In this document: positions 2,605-48,224 of the stretch, piece by piece
Position numbering within the stretch: the stretch's first letter is position 1
Layout of the letters: each line of letters opens with the position of its first letter
Position numbers and translations under genes: made by a program
The notes under the pieces: model-generated
Told to the model about the DNA's origin: nothing
Databases searched by the model: none
What the model saw: only the letters and a program-made list of their open reading frames with translations
NCBI GenBank assembly: GCA_045536495.1
Contig: JAZSNR010000027.1
Span: 549 to 64,548, forward strand
Direction: 5' to 3'
DNA: 64,000 bases
Source of the DNA: Acutalibacteraceae bacterium
Lineage (GTDB): Bacteria; Bacillota; Clostridia; Oscillospirales; Acutalibacteraceae

Positions 2605-4152
2605 ATGGGAACAAGTACAATTTTAATTTTGATAACCATTGTTTGCTATCTCGGGATGATGATTGCAATTGGTGCAAAATTTTCAAAGAAAAACAAAGAT
2701 ACATCGGATTTCTATCTTGGTGGTAGAAAATTAGGACCTTTCGTAACAGCAATGAGTGCGGAAGCATCCGATATGAGCAGCTGGCTTCTTATGGGTCTTC
2801 CCGGTGTTGCTCTTATTGCAGGTTTGGCAGAGGCTTCATGGACTGCAATAGGTCTTGCGGTAGGTACATATATCAACTGGCTTGTAGTTGCAAAAAAAAT
2901 ACGTTTGTATTCAAGTAAAATTGATGCAGTTACATTGCCTGAGTTCTTCTCAAAAAGATTCGGTGACAATGCGGGTATATTGAAATTTATCGCTGCAGCG
3001 GTTATTATAGTATTCTTTATTCCTTACACAGCATCAGGCTTCTCTGCTTGCGGTAAGCTTTTCGAATCAATTTTCGGAATTCCTTATATGACAGCAATGA
3101 TTGTCAGCGGTATCGTTATTGTTTTATATACTGCTTTGGGCGGTTTCCTCGCAGCATCAACAACAGACTTTATTCAGTCAATTGTTATGACAATTGCGCT
3201 TGTTGTTGTTCTCGGATTCGGCATTAATTATGCAGGCGGTTGGGAACAGGTTGCTGAGAATGCAGAAAACCTTGCAGGTTATCTCAACTTTACAATCACT
3301 CATGGTGCAGGAAGCGTCAGCGAAGCGATTGCAGGCACAGCAGGTACAAAGCCTTACGGTGCGCTCACAATTGCATCAACTTTGGCTTGGGGGCTTGGTT
3401 ATTTCGGTATGCCCCACATTCTTCTCAGATTTATGGCAATTGAAAAAGTTGAAAAAATTAAACTTGCAAGAAGAGTAGCTTCTATCTGGGTTGTTATTTC
3501 AATGGCAGTTGCAATAGTTATCGGTGTTGTAGGCTACGGCGTTGTTAAGAGCGGTGTTGTTACAGGTCTTGAAGACAGCGAAAGAATAATTATTGAAATT
3601 GCAAAGGTTATCAGCGGCGAAGGTTGGATTTTCGCGATTGTTGCAGGTATCATTCTTTCAGGTATTCTTGCTTCTATTATGTCAACTGCTGATTCACAGC
3701 TTCTCGCAGCATCTTCAAGTATTTCCGAAGATATTTTCAAGGCTGTTAAGCTTAATGTTTCCGGCAAAAAGAAAATGTTGGTTGCACGAATTTCTGTTAT
3801 TGTTATAGCGATCATCGCTATGTTTATTGCAAAAGATCCCAACAGCAAGGTTTTTGAAATCGTTTCATTTGCTTGGGCAGGTTTCGGTGCAACATTCGGT
3901 GCTGTTGTTCTTTGCGCACTTTTCTTCAAACGTACAAACAAATGGGGCGCTCTTGCAGGTATGGTAAGCGGTGCTGTTATGGTATTCGTTTGGAAATTTG
4001 TTATCAGCGGTTTCGGCGGTGCATTCGCAATTTACGAGCTCCTTCCCGCGTTCATCATTTCACTTGTGCTTACAGTTGTTGTTTCTCTTGTCACTCCCGC
4101 TCCTTCAAAGGAAGTTCAGGAAACATTCGATGCTGTTAAAGCAGAAAAATAA
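2605..4152 (+). CDS. putP: sodium:proline symporter (SSS family)
   Basis: 515-aa polytopic membrane ORF with RBS GGAG. Motifs such as FYLGGRKLGP and SWLLMGLPG are typical of PutP. Confidence 0.85.
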   Translation: MGTSTILILITIVCYLGMMIAIGAKFSKKNKDTSDFYLGGRKLGPFVTAMSAEASDMSSWLLMGLPGVALIAGLAEASWTAIGLAVGTYINWLVVAKKIRLYSSKIDAVTLPEFFSKRFGDNAGILKFIAAAVIIVFFIPYTASGFSACGKLFESIFGIPYMTAMIVSGIVIVLYTALGGFLAASTTDFIQSIVMTIALVVVLGFGINYAGGWEQVAENAENLAGYLNFTITHGAGSVSEAIAGTAGTKPYGALTIASTLAWGLGYFGMPHILLRFMAIEKVEKIKLARRVASIWVVISMAVAIVIGVVGYGVVKSGVVTGLEDSERIIIEIAKVISGEGWIFAIVAGIILSGILASIMSTADSQLLAASSSISEDIFKAVKLNVSGKKKMLVARISVIVIAIIAMFIAKDPNSKVFEIVSFAWAGFGATFGAVVLCALFFKRTNKWGALAGMVSGAVMVFVWKFVISGFGGAFAIYELLPAFIISLVLTVVVSLVTPAPSKEVQETFDAVKAEK

Positions 4153-39903: not shown

Positions 39904-42330
39904 TTATTCTCCGATCAGATTACATTCAATGAGATTTTTACCATTGAATCTGAATCCTTTAGCTTCAAAGGGTGTGAAAATGATTTCAAACTCTTTGCCG
40001 TTTATAGAAAGATTAGTGCTTTCAGCATTTTCAGAAGAGTTGAAAATGCGAAGAAGATATTCTTCATTATTCCACTTTTTATAAGAAGAAAGAAGAATTT
40101 TGTTGTTGCTTATTTTGAACTCTGTTTCGCATTTTTCGCCGTTGCCTGAGGGGAAGAAGGAGAGGGCGTAGGGCGGTTGGTTGAAAACTTCCGCATCTGA
40201 GTCAATAGTGTCAAATTCGGGGGTTAGTCTGTAAGAGAAATCTCTTTCGCCCATATCAATGTGATTGTGGAATCTGTCATCGTCTGTGATGGGTCTGTCG
40301 TTTATGGGGTGGGCAGAATAAATAGGAGTTCTCATAAGAGTTATATTGAGAATATTGTCTTTTGCGCTACCGCCGTAGGTACTGTTGTTGATAACTGCGA
40401 AAGCGGTGTCATTTTCTTTAAATGCGCACCATTTCTGATATGTAACTTCCTTTTCCTCTTCAAGAAGCTCTTCCTTGCCGAAGGCAGTTTGACCTATGAA
40501 TTTCGGGTTTTCAAAGTTTGTATCAAAGGAAAGTTTGTAAAGAGTGTTAACATCGTTTGCAAGAATTTTTACATCTGTATCAATGTAAACATCTTCTTTT
40601 GGGAGTGAATAAGTGATAATCGCAAAAGAATTACGGTTTTTGAAGGTTGCCTGGATTTTGGCTCTTACATCGCCGTTTTCGATGACGTGAACATTCTCAC
40701 AATCTGCATTGGGGTAACCTGCAAATTTATTTGCTTCTTCTTTTAAAAGGAGAGTGAATTCGCCGATTTTATCATAAAAACCGTCGTTTGTCATACCCCA
40801 GGGGTCTTCGTTGTCTTTATAAACAAGGATTTTACCACTGTTTTCTTTTAAAAGATTTTTGCCCTCAAGCTCATATTTATCAATAAGTCCTGTTGATTTA
40901 TTAATAAGAACAGAGGTTTTTTTGTTTTCAAAAACGAAATGAGTATCGGTTTCTTTTAAAGGTGCAATAGGTCTTTTATCGATTTTTTCAACATGCAATT
41001 TGCAATCAAAACGATTGATGCTCATTGGCTTTAATTCTGCTCTGAAGCAAATTCGCTTTCTCCAGTCCATTGTTAAACTGCTTGATTCTTTTTCGTTCTG
41101 GCAAGGGAGGTAGCTTCCTTTTTCATCGCGGATTTTAACAAGGGTTGTTTCGCCCTCGTTCCAATTCTGGTCGGCAAGCTGAAATTCTGCCTGAATTTCT
41201 CTTGTAATGGGGTAGGGGTGAGGGTTGAAAACAATAACGGGAATTTCACCCTCAATTGCTTTTTCCTGACCCTCGCAAAGCTTGAAGAATGCTTTTGCTG
41301 TAAGGCGGGCAACGATTTCTCTGCCGTAACCTAAAAGGCGGAGGATTTCATTCTCGCCGTCTTTTATCATTGTGCCCGGGAGAATATCGTGGAACTGGCT
41401 GAAAAGAAGTGCTTTTTCTGCGGATTTAAGCTCTTTTTCGTCATAGTCCACACCGCTTAATGCAAGCATTTTTTCGCAGGTGACCAGCTCGTTTTCAAGG
41501 GCTCTGTAATTCTTTTTGATTTGCGCCATTGTGGTATAGCAACCTACCATACAATGAACAAGAGATTTGGAGTAAGTGTTAAGCTCTTTAGTATCAACCT
41601 CGGAAAAATAGTTTTCGCAATAAGAATGTTCTACAATTATTTCGGGGTGAGTTTTGATATATTCTTCAATGTTATCAAGGTCAATTTTTGATGGTCCGCC
41701 ACCATGATTGCCAACACCCCATAACATAAGGTTTGCGCCATCGTGGGCATCTTCTAAAATTCTGTCAATTTTTTTGGTAACTTCGCCTCTTGCGCAGTTA
41801 TAACCGCCCCACATTGAATGACCTATAATTTCGCTGCCGTCATAGCCATTCCAGATGAAATCGGTATCGTCACCTACAATGTTGTGAGGGCGCATAAACA
41901 AATAGGAATCGTAACCGCTTTTTTTGAGAATCTGAACAAGACCGCGAGTGTGGCCAAAGGGATCAAAGTTTATTGCGGTGGTGGGCTTAACACCGAATTT
42001 TTCTTTAAAATAACGGTTTCCTATTTCAATCTGACGCAAAAACCCTTCAGCAGAAGGCATTGTGCAGTCGGGCTGGAGATACCATCCGCCCATAATACGC
42101 CATTTACCTTTTTTAACAAGCTCTTGAATTCTTTTGAAAAGCTCGGGCTCGTTTTCCTCAACCCATTCATAAAGAACGGATTCGTTGTGATTGAAAATGA
42201 AATTATCATATTTTTCACAAAAATCAGCGGCAACGCGGAAGGTGGAAATAGCTTCAGCTATGCCTTCGTTTTTTGCCCAAAGCCAGATTGGGTCAAGGTG
42301 AGCGTTGCATAATAAATGGATTTTTTTCAT
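39904..42330 (-). CDS. GH38 alpha-mannosidase (cytoplasmic)
   Basis: MKKIHLLCNAHLDPIWLW is the GH38 N-terminal metal-site motif. About 808 aa. ATG 42330 follows AGGAGC. Confidence 0.88.
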   Translation of the reverse strand: MKKIHLLCNAHLDPIWLWAKNEGIAEAISTFRVAADFCEKYDNFIFNHNESVLYEWVEENEPELFKRIQELVKKGKWRIMGGWYLQPDCTMPSAEGFLRQIEIGNRYFKEKFGVKPTTAINFDPFGHTRGLVQILKKSGYDSYLFMRPHNIVGDDTDFIWNGYDGSEIIGHSMWGGYNCARGEVTKKIDRILEDAHDGANLMLWGVGNHGGGPSKIDLDNIEEYIKTHPEIIVEHSYCENYFSEVDTKELNTYSKSLVHCMVGCYTTMAQIKKNYRALENELVTCEKMLALSGVDYDEKELKSAEKALLFSQFHDILPGTMIKDGENEILRLLGYGREIVARLTAKAFFKLCEGQEKAIEGEIPVIVFNPHPYPITREIQAEFQLADQNWNEGETTLVKIRDEKGSYLPCQNEKESSSLTMDWRKRICFRAELKPMSINRFDCKLHVEKIDKRPIAPLKETDTHFVFENKKTSVLINKSTGLIDKYELEGKNLLKENSGKILVYKDNEDPWGMTNDGFYDKIGEFTLLLKEEANKFAGYPNADCENVHVIENGDVRAKIQATFKNRNSFAIITYSLPKEDVYIDTDVKILANDVNTLYKLSFDTNFENPKFIGQTAFGKEELLEEEKEVTYQKWCAFKENDTAFAVINNSTYGGSAKDNILNITLMRTPIYSAHPINDRPITDDDRFHNHIDMGERDFSYRLTPEFDTIDSDAEVFNQPPYALSFFPSGNGEKCETEFKISNNKILLSSYKKWNNEEYLLRIFNSSENAESTNLSINGKEFEIIFTPFEAKGFRFNGKNLIECNLIGE

Positions 42331-42476
42331 ATGGGTTGCTCCTGAAAGATTTATAATATAATTGGTATTATAGCAAATAAAATTATAGTGTTCAAGGATA
42401 AAGTTAGATAGACTTCGCAAACAGAAGGCAATTGAAACAAAGCAAAAAGGATATCCTTACGGATATCCTTTTTACT

Positions 42477-42570
42477 TGGCGCAGAAGGAGAAACTCGCAA
42501 GGCTCTGCCTTGCGTTCGCTACGCGAACAACCGATTGTGTTCGGCTTCGCCGAGGGAGTTCGAGTCTCTC
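42477..42570 (-). other. tRNA-Ser(GCU)-associated structured element
   Basis: Components: an inverted 15-nt T-arm copy (42556-42570), internal hairpins, a CAGAG-loop hairpin (42497-42513), then a 20-nt copy of the tRNA 3' end with CCA (42477-42496, 1 mismatch). A duplicate of the tRNA terminator follows at 42444-42473. Confidence 0.6.
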
Positions 42571-42625
42571 AACAGACTAATTGAAGTAAAACAAAAAAGA
42601 TACCCTTACGGATATCTTCTTCGTT

Positions 42626-42716
42626 TGGCGCAGAAGGAGAGACTCGAACTCTCGCGCCGGTTTCCCGACCTACGCCCTTAGCAGGGGCGCCTCGTCACCA
42701 ACTTGAGTACTTCTGC
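42626..42716 (-). tRNA. tRNA-Ser (anticodon GCU), CCA encoded
   Basis: Manual cloverleaf: acceptor GCAGAAG/CTTCTGC, anticodon arm CGCCC-CTGCTAA-GGGCG, long variable arm, T-arm GAGAG-TTCGAGT-CTCTC. Confidence 0.85.
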
Positions 42717-42759
42717 ATTGGTAACTGAAAATCAGTTATTAAATTGTCCTCAAAAGAGG

Positions 42760-42848
42760 TGGCGCAGAGAGTGGGATTCGAACCCACGGTACGTTGCCGT
42801 ACGACGGTTTTCAAGACCGTTCCGTTATAACCACTTCGGTATCTCTGC
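42760..42848 (-). tRNA. tRNA-Ser (anticodon UGA), CCA encoded
   Basis: Acceptor GCAGAGA/TCTCTGC, anticodon arm ACGGT-CTTGAAA-ACCGT, long variable arm, T-loop GGTTCGAATCC. Confidence 0.85.
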
Positions 42849-42864
42849 ATATGTTAGCCTTGAT

Positions 42865-42893
42865 ATATTATCACACTCAAAAGAAAAAGTCAA
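42865..42893 (-). promoter_or_regulatory. putative promoter of the tRNA-Ser pair
   Basis: On the minus strand: TTGACT, a 17-nt spacer, then TAATAT, about 16 nt upstream of the tRNA 5' end. Confidence 0.55.
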
Positions 42894-42948
42894 CAGTTTT
42901 TTAATTATGTTTATAAAAAACTTTTTCCAAAAATTTTCGAATAAAGTA

Positions 42949-42977
42949 TTGACATTCGGGAATTGTAAGAGTATAAT
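42949..42977 (+). promoter_or_regulatory. putative promoter of tRNA-Gln
   Basis: TTGACA, a 17-nt spacer, then TATAAT, 12 nt upstream of the tRNA 5' end. Confidence 0.6.
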
Positions 42978-42989
42978 AACGTTCGTCCT

Positions 42990-43063
42990 AGCGGGATAGT
43001 GTAACGGTAGCACGACAGACTCTGACTCTGTTTGTTGGGGTTCGAATCCCTATCCCGCTGCCA
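42990..43063 (+). tRNA. tRNA-Gln (anticodon CUG), CCA encoded
   Basis: Acceptor AGCGGGA/TCCCGCT, anticodon arm ACAGA-CTCTGAC-TCTGT, T-loop GGTTCGAATCC. 74 nt. Confidence 0.8.
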
Positions 43064-43101
43064 AAAACAAAACCACCCAATCGGGTGGTTTTTGTTTTTT
43101 T
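43064..43101 (+). terminator. intrinsic terminator after tRNA-Gln
   Basis: Stem aaccaccc/gggtggtt followed by a T-run. Confidence 0.7.
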
Positions 43102-43112
43102 GTTAAGATTAT

Positions 43113-43254
43113 ATAGGGATTCGAACCAGGAGGGAGCAAAACTCGTTTTGCGGAAGAAAACAGTCCGGTGGACTGTTTTCGCCGACGTGGGCAACGAGCG
43201 AAGCGAGGCGAGAGGCGCAGAGCGCCGAAAAAATCCCTATCCCGCTGCCAAAAA
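43113..43254 (+). other. tRNA-Gln-associated structured element
   Basis: Components: an inverted 15-nt T-arm copy (43113-43127), GC-rich hairpins, a CAGAG-loop hairpin (43214-43226), then a 23-nt exact copy of the tRNA 3' end with CCA and 4 trailing A (43232-43254). It has its own terminator at 43250-43287. Confidence 0.6.
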
Positions 43255-43422
43255 TCCTCGTACGATAGTACGGGGATTTTATTTTTTCACTCTTCACTCT
43301 TCGCTTTTCACTTTTTTCTTGTTGCTCGGATTTTTGGCAAATAATAGTGAACAGTGAAGAAGTTTTTTGCATAATTTTAACATTCATTCACAAACTATTT
43401 ACAAAAAACTTTGCAAAAGTGG

Positions 43423-43451
43423 TTGACAAATGCTACCAGGGGGAGTATATT
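43423..43451 (+). promoter_or_regulatory. sigma-A promoter of the hrcA operon
   Basis: TTGACA, a 17-nt spacer, then TATATT, directly upstream of CIRCE. Confidence 0.65.
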
Positions 43452-43461
43452 ATTAACAGAG

Positions 43462-43488
43462 TTAGCACTCGGCTTTGGAGAGTGCTAA
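43462..43488. promoter_or_regulatory. CIRCE operator (HrcA binding site)
   Basis: TTAGCACTC-N9-GAGTGCTAA is a perfect match to the consensus. Confidence 0.95.
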
Positions 43489-43519: not shown

Positions 43520-44551
43520 GTGGCAGAACTTACAGGGCGCAAGCAACAGATTCTTGCAATTATAATCGAACGCTTTATTGCCACGGGCGAACCTGTTGGC
43601 TCAAAAGCTATATGCGCTGAAATGGGCAATGCGGTTTCTTCCGCTACCATTCGTAATGATATGGCGGATTTGGTTGAAATGGGTCTTTTAGAACAGCCTC
43701 ACACATCCGCAGGTCGAGTACCATCTCAACTTGGTTATAGATATTATGTTGATAATTTAATGACTGCTTATGAATTAGGTATAGAAGAGCAGGAACGAAT
43801 CAAAATATGGTTACAGTCCTTTTCAGGCGAACCTGATAAGCTCCTTGAAAAAGCAGGGAGCATTTTAGCGGAGCTTACGGACTGCGTTGCAGTTTCCTCT
43901 TCACCTGCAGATGCAGATGCAAAGATAAAGCGGATTGAGCTTGTTCCTTTAAGCAGTCATACTGCTATGATAGTTCTCCTTGCAACCTCGGGTATTCTTA
44001 AAAGCTCGGTTGTAAGAAGTGACGCAGAAATAAATGTTGATATCGCGGAGGTTTTCTATAACATCTGTCAGAATTATTTTATCGGTAAATCCGTTTCTGA
44101 TATAAATGTAATGTTTATTCAAACTCTTGTTGCTTCCCTTGGGGACAGAGTTTTTATAATGTCACCTTTCTTGTGTGCTATCGCGGACCTTTGCGAAGCG
44201 GTTAAAACAACAGAGCTTCATTTAAAAGGTCAGTCAAACATACTTAATCACGAAGAGCTTTCCGAAGATGCTTTCAGACTTATGGATTTTCTTCACAGAG
44301 GAACACCTCTTGAAAATATGCTTGGTTCACATAAGAAACAGTTAAATGTGGCAATCGGAACAGAAAATCTTTACAGAGAATTGAAGAATTCTTCAACGAT
44401 TTTCTCAAAGTATTCCGTAGGTGACAAGGACAGCGGTTCAATCGGTATAATCGGTCCTACGAGAATTGATTATGCAAGACTTATACCGAGTATAAAATAT
44501 TTAGCATCGGTTATCGGAAATCTCCTTTCGGAGACTTTAGAGGAGGGTTAA
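43520..44551 (+). CDS. hrcA: heat-inducible transcription repressor HrcA
   Basis: GTG start after GAGGTGAGG. RKQQIL..II..FI.TGEPVGSK......G..VSSATIRNDMADL...GLL.QPHTSAGRVP matches HrcA. Confidence 0.93.
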   Translation: MAELTGRKQQILAIIIERFIATGEPVGSKAICAEMGNAVSSATIRNDMADLVEMGLLEQPHTSAGRVPSQLGYRYYVDNLMTAYELGIEEQERIKIWLQSFSGEPDKLLEKAGSILAELTDCVAVSSSPADADAKIKRIELVPLSSHTAMIVLLATSGILKSSVVRSDAEINVDIAEVFYNICQNYFIGKSVSDINVMFIQTLVASLGDRVFIMSPFLCAIADLCEAVKTTELHLKGQSNILNHEELSEDAFRLMDFLHRGTPLENMLGSHKKQLNVAIGTENLYRELKNSSTIFSKYSVGDKDSGSIGIIGPTRIDYARLIPSIKYLASVIGNLLSETLEEG

Positions 44552-44553
44552 AA

Positions 44554-45105
44554 ATGGCGAATGAAGAAAACAAGGCAGTAGAAACCGAAGAAGCTGCCGA
44601 AGTGAAAAAAGAAACAAAAAAAGAAAAGAAAGCAAAGAAAAATGCAGAGGTTGATGCTCTCAAGGCAGAAATTGAGAAGCTCACAACTGACCTTGCGGCT
44701 CTTAAAGATTCACATCTTCGCACTCTTGCAGAATACGACAACTACAGAAAACGCTCTCAAAGAGAAAAGGAAGCAACCTACGGTGATGCGAAAGCGAATA
44801 CACTTAAAGCACTTCTTCCCGTAATTGATAATTTCGACAGAGCTCTGGAGAACTCAACCGATGATATTGAGGTTTACAGAAAAGGCGTTGAAATGACAGT
44901 TGCTCAGCTTAAAGAAATTCTCAAGAATATGGAAGTTGAGAGCTTCGGCGAGGTTGGGGACGAATTTGACCCCAATATTCACAGTGCGGTTATGATTGTT
45001 GAAAATGATGAGCTTCCCGAAAACTCCGTTGCGGCGGTTTTTGAAAAAGGTTATAAAATGGGTGACAGAATATTGCGCTTTGCAACTGTTCAGGTCACTA
45101 ACTAA
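44554..45105 (+). CDS. grpE: nucleotide exchange factor GrpE
   Basis: Acidic/Lys-rich N-terminus, then the LR..AE.DNYRKR motif and a conserved C-terminal beta domain. Confidence 0.93.
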   Translation: MANEENKAVETEEAAEVKKETKKEKKAKKNAEVDALKAEIEKLTTDLAALKDSHLRTLAEYDNYRKRSQREKEATYGDAKANTLKALLPVIDNFDRALENSTDDIEVYRKGVEMTVAQLKEILKNMEVESFGEVGDEFDPNIHSAVMIVENDELPENSVAAVFEKGYKMGDRILRFATVQVTN

Positions 45106-45126
45106 ACATATAAACAATACTTATAA

Positions 45127-46992
<1,866 letters not shown>

Positions 46993-47006
46993 TTATTGAT
47001 TAAAAG

Positions 47007-47039
47007 CCGAAGACGGTTCTCAAAAGGAACCGTCTTCGG
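47007..47039 (+). other. 13-bp perfect stem-loop between dnaK and dnaJ (no T-run)
   Basis: ccgaagacggttc-tcaaaag-gaaccgtcttcgg. It is probably a processing, stability or partial-termination element. Confidence 0.5.
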
Positions 47040-47069
47040 TGAGTGAATTCCTAAAGAAAGGAATCAATT

Positions 47070-48224
47070 ATGGCAGATAAAAGAGATTATTACGAGGTGT
47101 TGGGCGTTTCCAAAAGCGCCACACCCGATGAGATAAAAAAAGCATATCGCCAGCTTGCGAAAAAATATCACCCCGACCTTAACCCCGATAACAAGGAAGC
47201 GGAAGCAAAGTTTAAAGAAGCAAACGAGGCTTATGAAATTCTTTCCGACTCTGATAAGAAAGAAAAATATGACCGCTTCGGCTTTGCAGGTGTTGACCCC
47301 AGCTACGGCGCAGGTCAAGGTGGCGGATTTGGTGGCTTCGGCGGATTTGACGGCGGAATGGAATTCGATTTGGGCGACCTTTTCGGTTCATTCTTCGGCG
47401 GATTCGGTGGTGGCGGTTCACGCTCCAATCCCAACGCTCCCCGTCGCGGTAGCGATATTCAGACTAACATATATATTTCCTTTGAGGAAGCCGCAAAGGG
47501 TTGCAAAAAAACTGTTGAATTCCAGAGAATTGAGCTTTGTGACGAATGCTCCGGTAGCGGTGCGGCAAAGGGTACTTCACCCCAGACCTGCCCTGACTGT
47601 AACGGCAGAGGTCAGATCAATGTTCAGCAGAGAACACCTTTCGGCACTATCAGTACATCAAAGCCCTGTCAGCGTTGCGGCGGTAAGGGTACATTCAATC
47701 CCAATCCTTGCACAAGATGTAAGGGTGCAGGAAGAATCAGAAGAACTGTTAAGCAGGAAATTACTATTCCTGCAGGTATTGATGACGGACAGATTTTCAC
47801 AGTTCGCAACGAGGGTAACCGCGGTGTAAACGGCGGTCCTGCAGGTGATTTGAGAGTTGGCGTTGTAGTTAAGCCCCATCCCTTCTTTGAACGCGACGGC
47901 TACAATGTATGGTATGATATGAAGGTTACTTTCGTTCAGGCTGCTCTCGGTGATAAGCTCCGAGTTCCCACCCTTGACGGACAGGTTGAATATATTCTTC
48001 CTGCAGGAACTCAACCCGGTGACATTTTCAAGTTGAAGGGCAGAGGTATTCAGGTGCTTAACTCCACAAGACGCGGTGACCAGCTCATCAGAATCAGCGT
48101 TGATGTTCCGAAAAACCTTAACGAAAAGCAAAAAGAAGCACTTCTCAATTTCAACAATGCGATGGGTGCAAACCCCGTTGACCCGGAAGAGAAAAAAGGT
48201 TTTTTCGGTAAAAAGAAGAAATAA
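47070..48224 (+). CDS. dnaJ: molecular chaperone DnaJ
   Basis: J-domain DYYEVLGV...[13 protein letters not shown], a G/F region and four CxxCxGxG zinc-finger repeats. Confidence 0.97.

Follow-up and report, generated by a model that had tools for sequence, protein, structure and literature searches.

Both tRNA transcription units of a 64,000-nucleotide stretch from an Acutalibacteraceae bacterium (GenBank assembly GCA_045536495.1, contig JAZSNR010000027.1, positions 549 to 64,548 of the forward strand; hereafter the window) end in a structured module bracketed by sequence copied from the tRNA itself: an inverted copy of its T arm on the 5′ side and a direct copy of its 3′ end, through CCA, on the 3′ side. 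This is the layout of RtT RNA (Rfam family RF00391) of the Escherichia coli tyrT operon, a likeness that the first-pass annotation of the window had missed. We consider it probable that the modules are RtT-type tRNA-trailer RNAs, which arise when transcription runs past the tRNA terminator and whose trimming ends at the copy of the tRNA 3′ end. Our analysis extends the RtT architecture to another phylum and to other tRNAs; new here are the purifying selection, the covariation and the brackets that track the local tRNA.

Modules behind the tRNA-Gln and tRNA-Ser genes

The two tRNA-Ser genes of the window form a single operon, and hence both of its tRNA transcription units end in a module. Six parts are common to the Gln and Ser loci, as the first-pass annotation had described: a terminator, an inverted T-arm copy, a GC-rich core of several hairpins, a last hairpin, a copy of the tRNA 3′ end through CCA and a second terminator. 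The repeats, terminators and core were confirmed at the following coordinates, P1 being the helix formed by the two brackets.

Gln locus
42949–42977, plus strand: tRNA-Gln promoter, TTGACA-17-TATAAT (12/12 match), the sole sense-strand promoter upstream of the Gln module
42990–43063, plus strand: tRNA-Gln(CUG), CCA encoded (ARAGORN and Rfam; 100% identical in 12 species)
43064–43102, plus strand: terminator 1, a hairpin at 43069–43092 and a T run; orthologous yet fast-evolving between species
43103–43112, plus strand: spacer, 10 nt
43113–43127, plus strand: 5′ bracket ATAGGGATTCGAACC, inverted tRNA-Gln T-arm copy (15/15)
43113–43121, plus strand: 5′ strand of P1
43128–43231, plus strand: core, 104 nt, consisting of H1, H2, H3, a single-stranded stretch, H4 and a GAAAA linker
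43136–43151, 43156–43180, 43181–43192 and 43214–43226, plus strand: core hairpins H1, H2, H3 and H4, the last being the 'CAGAG' hairpin of the first-pass annotation
43193–43213, plus strand: invariant single-stranded stretch of the core
43232–43250, plus strand: 3′ bracket AATCCCTATCCCGCTGCCA, 19 nt, direct tRNA-Gln copy from T-loop A58 to CCA
43232–43240, plus strand: 3′ strand of P1, leaving a 10-nt tail
43251–43287, plus strand: terminator 2, abutting the copied CCA (terminator-like call at 43251–43280)

Ser locus
42865–42893, minus strand: promoter-like site of the operon, TTGACT-17-TAATAT, ahead of tRNA-Ser(UGA)–tRNA-Ser(GCU)
42760–42848, minus strand: tRNA-Ser(UGA), in the same operon as tRNA-Ser(GCU) (ARAGORN and Rfam)
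42626–42716, minus strand: tRNA-Ser(GCU), last gene of the two-tRNA operon (ARAGORN and Rfam)
About 42588–42625, minus strand: terminator 1, read from the sequence, inside a 68-nt duplication
42548–42570, minus strand: 5′ bracket, inverted tRNA-Ser T-arm copy (15 nt exact at 42556–42570; 23 nt at 87%)
42561–42570, minus strand: 5′ strand of P1 (P1 98% paired in 5 species)
42498–42547, minus strand: core with three hairpins, at 42541–42553, 42514–42528 and 42498–42512
42477–42497, minus strand: 3′ bracket CGAGTTTCTCCTTCTGCGCCA, 21 nt, direct copy of the tRNA-Ser 3′ end (20/21; the mismatch retains a G-U pair in P1)
42440–42476, minus strand: terminator 2 (terminator-like call at 42477–42440), 84% identical to terminator 1 over the wider duplication

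The direct repeat at the Gln locus is perfect, with 43232–43254 identical to 43045–43067 at 23/23 positions, 19 nt being tRNA sequence and the remainder AAAA. That at the Ser locus is part of the 68-nt duplication (42430–42497 versus 42579–42646, 84% identity), which covers the tRNA 3′ end, the terminator and 12 nt further. The brackets are separated by 104 nt, the Gln core, at one locus and by 58 nt at the other. The Ser hairpin at 42541–42553 is of the GCGAAGC type, and its 5′ side overlaps the extended inverted copy at 42548–42553; that at 42498–42512 has an AGA loop and corresponds to the 'CAGAG' hairpin of the first-pass annotation. To judge from sequence statistics, an exact 15-mer and an exact 19-mer within 250 nt, twice over, would not arise by chance (about 1e-7 per 15-mer). 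Both elements also recur in other species.

GC content is 0.53–0.65 within the elements, compared to 0.39 for the window, and both fold much better than shuffled sequences (z = −4.6 and −6.3). In the predicted fold of the isolated element, the inverted arm and the 3′ copy form a closing helix (9 bp for Gln, 10 bp for Ser) around three or four internal hairpins, with a free 10–11-nt tail ending in CCA, in agreement with the 9–10 bp pairing and free CCA tail proposed in the first-pass annotation. Since this leaves the acceptor 3′ strand unpaired, the module is not a minihelix-type tRNA mimic; it differs from tRNA mimics such as tRNA-like structures or the tRNA-like domain of transfer-messenger RNA (tmRNA), which have a paired acceptor stem and NCCA stacked on the T arm. 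The modules were not called by ARAGORN or by the Rfam tRNA and tmRNA models. The earlier suggestion of transcribed tRNA-end mimics therefore survives in part: the modules are best read as transcribed structured elements with a tRNA 3′ end, but not as mimics of the minihelix type.

Conservation across species and covariation

HrcA, encoded downstream of the Gln module, is 95% identical to its counterpart in an Acutalibacteraceae (Clostridia) metagenome-assembled genome (MAG). For the HrcA and GrpE sequences of the window, look-ups of identical proteins gave no record. Following hrcA synteny, we found the tRNA-adjacent genes rearranged in relatives, with no tRNA upstream of hrcA there, and the element itself was therefore used as the search target. 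Scanning one genome per species for two tRNA-Gln 3′-end copies at the spacing of the Gln module yielded 11 other species, all Acutalibacteraceae or Oscillospirales MAGs, with tRNA-Gln, terminator, module and 3′ copy. Mean pairwise identity among the 12 sequences is 100% for the tRNA, 92% for the module, 90% for the core alone and 77% for terminator 1 plus spacer; it is 63% over the 80 nt upstream and 53% over the 100 nt downstream, compared to 48% for shuffled sequence. The Ser module occurs behind tRNA-Ser(GCU) in four of the same species (L009, L011, L015, L018), where it is 93% identical. As judged from these alignments, the core is under purifying selection nearly as strong as that on the tRNA, with clear covariation.

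Base pairs were counted after aligning the copies to a covariance model built from them. In the Gln family 99.3% of the cells are paired (98.2% with metagenome copies added), and two-sided, compensatory changes occur at 7 pairs in 13 sequences and at 13 pairs in 21 sequences. None of 500 shuffles matched the observed Gln values, and sliding the partners lowered pairing to 33–51%. The Ser family (5 species) also has 99.3% of its cells paired, with 2 compensatory pairs and 2 G-U changes. Conservation of the hairpins, whose absence the first-pass annotation had named beforehand as grounds for giving up its claim, is thus evident. P1 is 95–98% paired, and two of its pairs covary between Gln-type modules and the Arg-type modules described below. 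All one-sided changes in the four Gln core hairpins, and 5/6 of those in P1, yield G-U pairs on the tRNA-sense strand; on the opposite strand the same changes would give A-C mismatches. The two-sided changes together with this G-U bias therefore point to a selected, strand-specific structure, formed by a single strand of tRNA polarity that is most simply RNA.

H4, the last Gln hairpin, keeps its position and covaries at 5/5 pairs, but its loop varies between AGA, GATA, GGA/GGAG, GGTA and GAA, so that the CAGAG loop held to be a signature of the family loses that role. The arm segment outside P1 (UUCGAAC) is invariant, also in a variant without the 3′ copy (see below). An alternative consensus fold from RNAalifold (AGGGA/UCCCU, GGGAU/AUCCC) was inseparable from P1 within the Gln sequences; it is disfavoured by the Arg modules, because A29 becomes C opposite U in them.

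Another intergenic repeat family was observed past the distal terminator in L013, L014, L017 and L018; it consists of short GC hairpins in series, with TATATCATC or TATGTAATC between them (e.g. ATCCAAGCCGCAGGCTTGGCATATCATCACGACGCAGTCGTGTATATCATC).

Likeness to RtT RNA and brackets that follow the local tRNA

RtT RNA was described in E. coli between 1978 and 1991. In a permissive Rfam scan, RF00391 spans its whole model over 43098–43250 with 14.5 bits (E = 1.6–9.1; gathering cut-off 45), and corresponding parts are aligned throughout (T run, inverted arm, outer helix, GC hairpin before the 3′ bracket, 3′ copy and tail to CCA). The tyrT–tyrV region of E. coli K-12 (L019) holds four RtT units: one lies between its two tRNA-Tyr genes and the other three beyond tyrV. 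Every unit comprises an inverted copy of the T arm (GGGGAAGGATGAGAAGCTTCG), hairpins rich in GC, a hairpin of 5 bp with GAGTA after it, and the last 19 nt of tRNA-Tyr, from A58 to CCA. The Gln covariance model, run over 150 kb, retrieved all four E. coli units at full length (12.8–20.8 bits, E = 0.007–0.6), its other matches being solely short ones to tRNA-Gln 3′ halves. A core-only nhmmer profile gave E = 20 on L019 and no match to the units of a further locus, L126; by eye, what the Gln core and RtT share is limited to short motifs such as GCGAAGC and CGAAGxGxGAGG. The Ser model had no match to E. coli RtT and one weak match (14.7 bits) to an L126 unit. L126, a GC-rich contig probably from a proteobacterial host, carries a tRNA-Ser(CGA) fragment and then four RtT units, two of which score above the Rfam cut-off (54 bits); all four have Ser-type brackets and, as in the window, a terminator after each unit.

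The modules and RtT thus have several features in common. Both lie directly 3′ of a tRNA gene and on the same strand, in the window as well as in the 11 other species for Gln and four for Ser; both end in a direct tRNA 3′ copy through CCA (19 nt in E. coli, 19 in Gln, 21 with one mismatch in Ser); in both, the strands of the outer helix are the 3′ copy and an inverted T-arm segment on the 5′ side, which agrees with the consensus structure of RF00391; and both have a GC-rich core of several hairpins with GNA-type loops, with a 5-bp hairpin 5–6 nt before the 3′ bracket. The units are tandem in E. coli, and on the Clostridia side form arrays in relatives and single units in the window. Covariance-model matches are reciprocal and full length, but weak. 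RtT belongs to tRNA-Tyr in Gammaproteobacteria, whereas the modules belong to tRNA-Gln, -Ser and -Arg in Clostridia. Moreover, each module has its own intrinsic terminator and another between it and the tRNA, unlike the E. coli units, which are without terminators; the tyrT transcript is reported to end at a Rho-dependent site. By Rfam's own criterion the window modules fall outside RF00391, and it is on the basis of architecture that we liken them to RtT. What is shared across phyla, and between the Gln and Ser elements, is this architecture, common descent of the cores not being demonstrable from the sequences.

In EcoCyc, RtT is annotated as an RNA of 171 nt that starts immediately downstream of tyrV and ends at the first copied CCA, and the E. 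coli annotation places tpr, for the 'protamine-like' Tpr, within rttR. RtT is described as processed from the tyrT transcript, its mode of action being unknown (bioRxiv 10.1101/2024.07.17.603846). As a separate observation, a preprint (PMC11623569) reports a pseudouridine-bearing small RNA (sRNA) 'antisense to tRNA-Tyr' in E. coli from a protocol that keeps no strand information; one may speculate that such reads come from RtT, whose units include the T arm of tRNA-Tyr in inverted form.

When metagenomes were scanned for just 20 nt of the Gln core, the matches were of four kinds, the first being further Gln modules. In one locus (L132) the tRNA-Gln has a different acceptor stem, and the 3′ copy of the module carries that acceptor sequence. 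A Gln-type core also occurs behind tRNA-Arg(ACG) 3′ fragments (L131, L136, L140), with the arm GGAAGGGATTCGAAC and the copy AATCCCTTCCGGCGTACCA; both brackets are re-tailored, with GAA/TTC in the closing helix in place of ATA/TAT, which is seen as the P1 covariation mentioned above. In a variant (L134, L137, L139; tandem in L139) arm and core are kept and the 3′ copy is gone. The tRNA-Arg(ACG) fragments start at the anticodon loop where they could be placed (L136, L140), with upstream DNA that differs between the two loci, and are followed by the array. DNA upstream of the tRNA fragments in L126, L136 and L140 is unrelated, and we take the fragments beside the arrays in L136 and L140 (as well as the similar partial tRNA in L126) to be possible att sites of integrated elements. 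The core pattern was also matched by a tandem repeat family at about 5200–5700 of L130 (motif GAGCGAAGCGAG), which is unrelated and has no tRNA brackets.

Brackets also enclose other cores. After the first Arg module lies a further module type with another core (AGGGATTCGAACCCGTGAGGG...TCGAATCCCTTCCGGCGTACCA). A larger 'type B' module, 190 nt long in L011, is found behind tRNA-Ser(GCU) in L011 (5620–5830), L015 (about 1560–1790) and L018 (about 3140–3360); its core is GC-rich and different (GGCAAGGAGCACGACCGCCGCCGGTGGCGG...ACAATTTTGGGCACCGCAAGAGGG). In L011 it opens with the bracket ACTCGAACTC and closes with TTCGAGTCTCTCCTTCTGCGCCA, whereas in L015 and L018 brackets are not evident. At gathering level Rfam assigns no family to the window modules, the Ser type B module or the second Arg module. 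In viral contigs, a search for the bracket pattern GGATTCGAAC...AATCC-N11-CCA in three size ranges returned about 290 loci, almost all ordinary minus-strand tRNA genes; true modules were found only in L126, L248 and L315. In the viral contigs L248 (3300–3600) and L315, two tandem ~105-nt bracket modules end in AATCCACCCGCGCCCACCA, each with its own terminator. They represent another tRNA type, with no intact tRNA gene in the locus, and are not called by Rfam; the arm of the first unit, GGATGAGAAC, is the T-loop variant of E. coli RtT. We tabulated seven bracket/core combinations, including E. coli tyrT, and the copy starts at A58 in 4/7.

The window has single units behind each tRNA operon, and tandem units occur in the relatives L009, L016, L139, L140 and L011. 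L009 has two identical 186-nt Gln units, terminator included, and 1.5 Ser units. In several species the two terminators are identical to each other, the pattern expected from unequal crossing-over between the tRNA end and its copy.

Transcription, alternative explanations and significance

No promoter-like site was detected between terminator 1 and either module, and so a module would be transcribed when RNA polymerase passes the tRNA terminator. A terminator directly follows the copied CCA in 12/12 species, many of the hairpins being non-homologous to one another. Its retention is hard to explain unless polymerase regularly arrives there, from which we infer read-through from the tRNA promoter. 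In the trailer-RNA explanation that we favour, RNA polymerase would read through the tRNA terminator into the module and be halted by the second terminator just beyond the copied CCA. The copied 19–21 nt would supply the tRNA's own 3′-maturation site, so that trimming stops at CCA, and P1 (9–11 bp) would close a compact multi-hairpin domain and, together with the stable hairpins, protect the RNA body. What is left would be a stable RNA, about 140 nt long for Gln and about 95 nt for Ser, in parallel to the 171-nt RtT RNA excised from the E. coli tyrT transcript. Unequal crossing-over or gene conversion that involves the tRNA end and terminator may prevent the 3′ copy from diverging from the tRNA, a process that would also make the arrays, and the arm may follow the 3′ copy by compensatory selection. 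Since the brackets are specific to the tRNA, function may concern the cognate tRNA, its precursor or its processing enzymes. Other tRNA-operon trailer RNAs released by the tRNA-processing machinery are the 3′ external transcribed spacer (3′ETS) sRNAs, such as E. coli 3′ETS-leuZ. These precede the operon terminator and carry no T-arm or 3′-end copies, whereas the modules are located downstream of a terminator, between brackets of tRNA origin.

Several points weigh against this explanation. The RF00391 score is far below the cut-off (14.5 versus 45 bits), and, as the core-only profile fails on RtT, the similarity between models may stem largely from the tRNA-derived brackets. The Gln model had no match to the Ser module, nor the Ser model to the Gln modules; the first-pass view of a single family rather than chance decay therefore holds for the shared architecture, but one family by sequence homology is not shown. 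A strong intrinsic terminator stands between tRNA and module, so that transcription would hinge on read-through. Given the variant without the 3′ copy (L134, L137, L139), the copied tRNA end is not indispensable. The trailer-RNA model leaves unexplained the invariance of UUCGAAC, the part of the arm outside P1, and, as single-stranded DNA can likewise contain G-T pairs, the wobbles identify the selected strand without strictly showing that it is RNA.

A serious alternative, which we hold to be unlikely though the best placed of the rivals, is that the module is not a free RNA but a cis-acting refolding device, in which the arm invades the T arm of the tRNA (15–23 bp) and the 5′ acceptor strand pairs with the distal copy. 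The product would be a tRNA-like chimera lacking a T arm, either marked for decay or processing (e.g. at the long duplex) or used as an alternative acceptor end. Exactly such pairing is present in the minimum free energy folds of both full read-through transcripts, where the arm pairs with the tRNA's own T arm over at least 15 bp and the tRNA 5′ acceptor strand with the distal copy (z = −7.5 and −6.8). The arm is complementary to the tRNA T arm over 15–23 nt, compared to 9–11 nt for the 3′ copy, and GGGATTCGAAC shows no change even where the 3′ copy has been lost. However, this fold follows by construction from the presence of two copies, and no covariation tells it from P1; a tRNA folds while it is being transcribed, and terminator 1 should end most transcripts. 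Furthermore, release as a separate RNA has been reported for E. coli RtT, and in the variant without the 3′ copy the outer arm does not match the tRNA (ATGGG for ATAGGG), which fits P1 as the selected helix.

Somewhat more doubtful still is a broader interpretation, whereby RtT-type brackets define a cross-phylum class of tRNA-specific riboregulators in which an antisense T arm is restrained by a sense copy of the 3′ end. Strand exchange with the cognate tRNA or the read-through precursor would then sense or redirect its folding, processing or decay, and the diverse cores would be the effector part.

We regard it as improbable that the module is a very small, non-autonomous mobile element moving in the form of a folded single strand, with arm and copy rebuilding a duplex identical to the T-arm region of the tRNA gene, with which a host tyrosine recombinase would recombine it. 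CTX phage and integron attC sites recombine in this single-strand manner, and GCGAAGC-type mini-hairpins, in which the cores are rich, are very stable in DNA. A circle of 3′ end, terminator, arm and core that integrates at the T loop would predict the observed order; the structure is strand-specific with G-T tolerated, and one core occurs behind different tRNAs with matched, re-tailored ends. That much lends weak support to the mobile element copying its target's end that the first-pass annotation had envisaged. Against it, no copies apart from those behind tRNA ends were found in the 64-kb window or in about 240 kb of related loci, so that the dispersed copies of miniature inverted-repeat transposable elements are missing there, and BLAST gave no phage or plasmid relatives but only short chance matches. 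Terminator 1, part of the would-be circle, evolves much faster than the core (77% versus 90% identity), and unequal crossing-over is a simpler source of the arrays, the L009 units being identical, terminator included. Invariance of unpaired core bases indicates, in addition, function beyond folding.

The attL/attR remnants of integrase-borne elements inserted in the tRNA T loop, also put forward in the first-pass annotation, are very unlikely. After crossing-over in the T loop, a direct repeat of the tRNA 3′ segment that begins there would be left, and in tRNA-gene att sites, as in the modules, such a repeat of the 3′ part lies downstream of the intact gene. But just about 100–130 nt lie between the repeats, with no element there but a conserved, structured interior; no integrase, transposase or reverse transcriptase was found within about 8 kb, the genes being housekeeping ones; and the interior is 90–92% conserved and covarying in 12 species with near-random flanks. 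The same bracket recurs in at least seven tRNA/core combinations, E. coli tyrT among them. In contrast to the module repeat, which runs from the T loop to CCA, the apparent att fragments of L136 and L140 start from the anticodon loop, with unrelated DNA on their flanks, and a scar leaves the extra inverted T-arm copy unexplained.

A small basic peptide, like the 'protamine-like' Tpr that the E. coli annotation has inside RtT (tpr within rttR), is highly improbable even though an open reading frame (ORF) at 43085–43357 crosses the Gln module and an invariant AGGAGG lies at 43128–43133: this sole candidate ORF has no ATG start codon, its substitutions are compensatory in stems without a synonymous pattern, and its exclusion follows from frameshifting indels of 1 and 2 nt between species (alignment columns 36, 42, 46–47, 72, 103).

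Other features were observed around the modules. The interval from the Gln module terminator to the hrcA promoter contains short, CT-rich direct repeats (TTTTCACTCTTCACTCTTCGCTTTTCAC) at 43284–43318, with an 18-nt inverted partner at 43343–43360. A near-consensus promoter, TTGACA-17-TATATT (43423–43451), followed by a perfect CIRCE operator, TTAGCACTC-N9-GAGTGCTAA (43462–43488), precedes hrcA–grpE–dnaK–dnaJ (43520–48224), a classic HrcA-regulated heat-shock operon. On the other side, a 164-aa ORF at 41818–42312 (plus strand) lies antisense within a GH38 alpha-mannosidase gene (39904–42420, minus strand) and is probably a spurious shadow ORF.

The modules resemble tRNA fragments or att sites, adjoin apparent integration sites and are missed by current Rfam thresholds; with such an appearance, they can mislead the prediction of genomic-island and prophage boundaries. 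With their occurrence in Clostridia and behind other tRNAs, their tracking brackets and a selected core, what was an enterobacterial curiosity becomes a candidate general class of tRNA-linked RNAs, and one that supplies many natural variants for working out how RtT acts.

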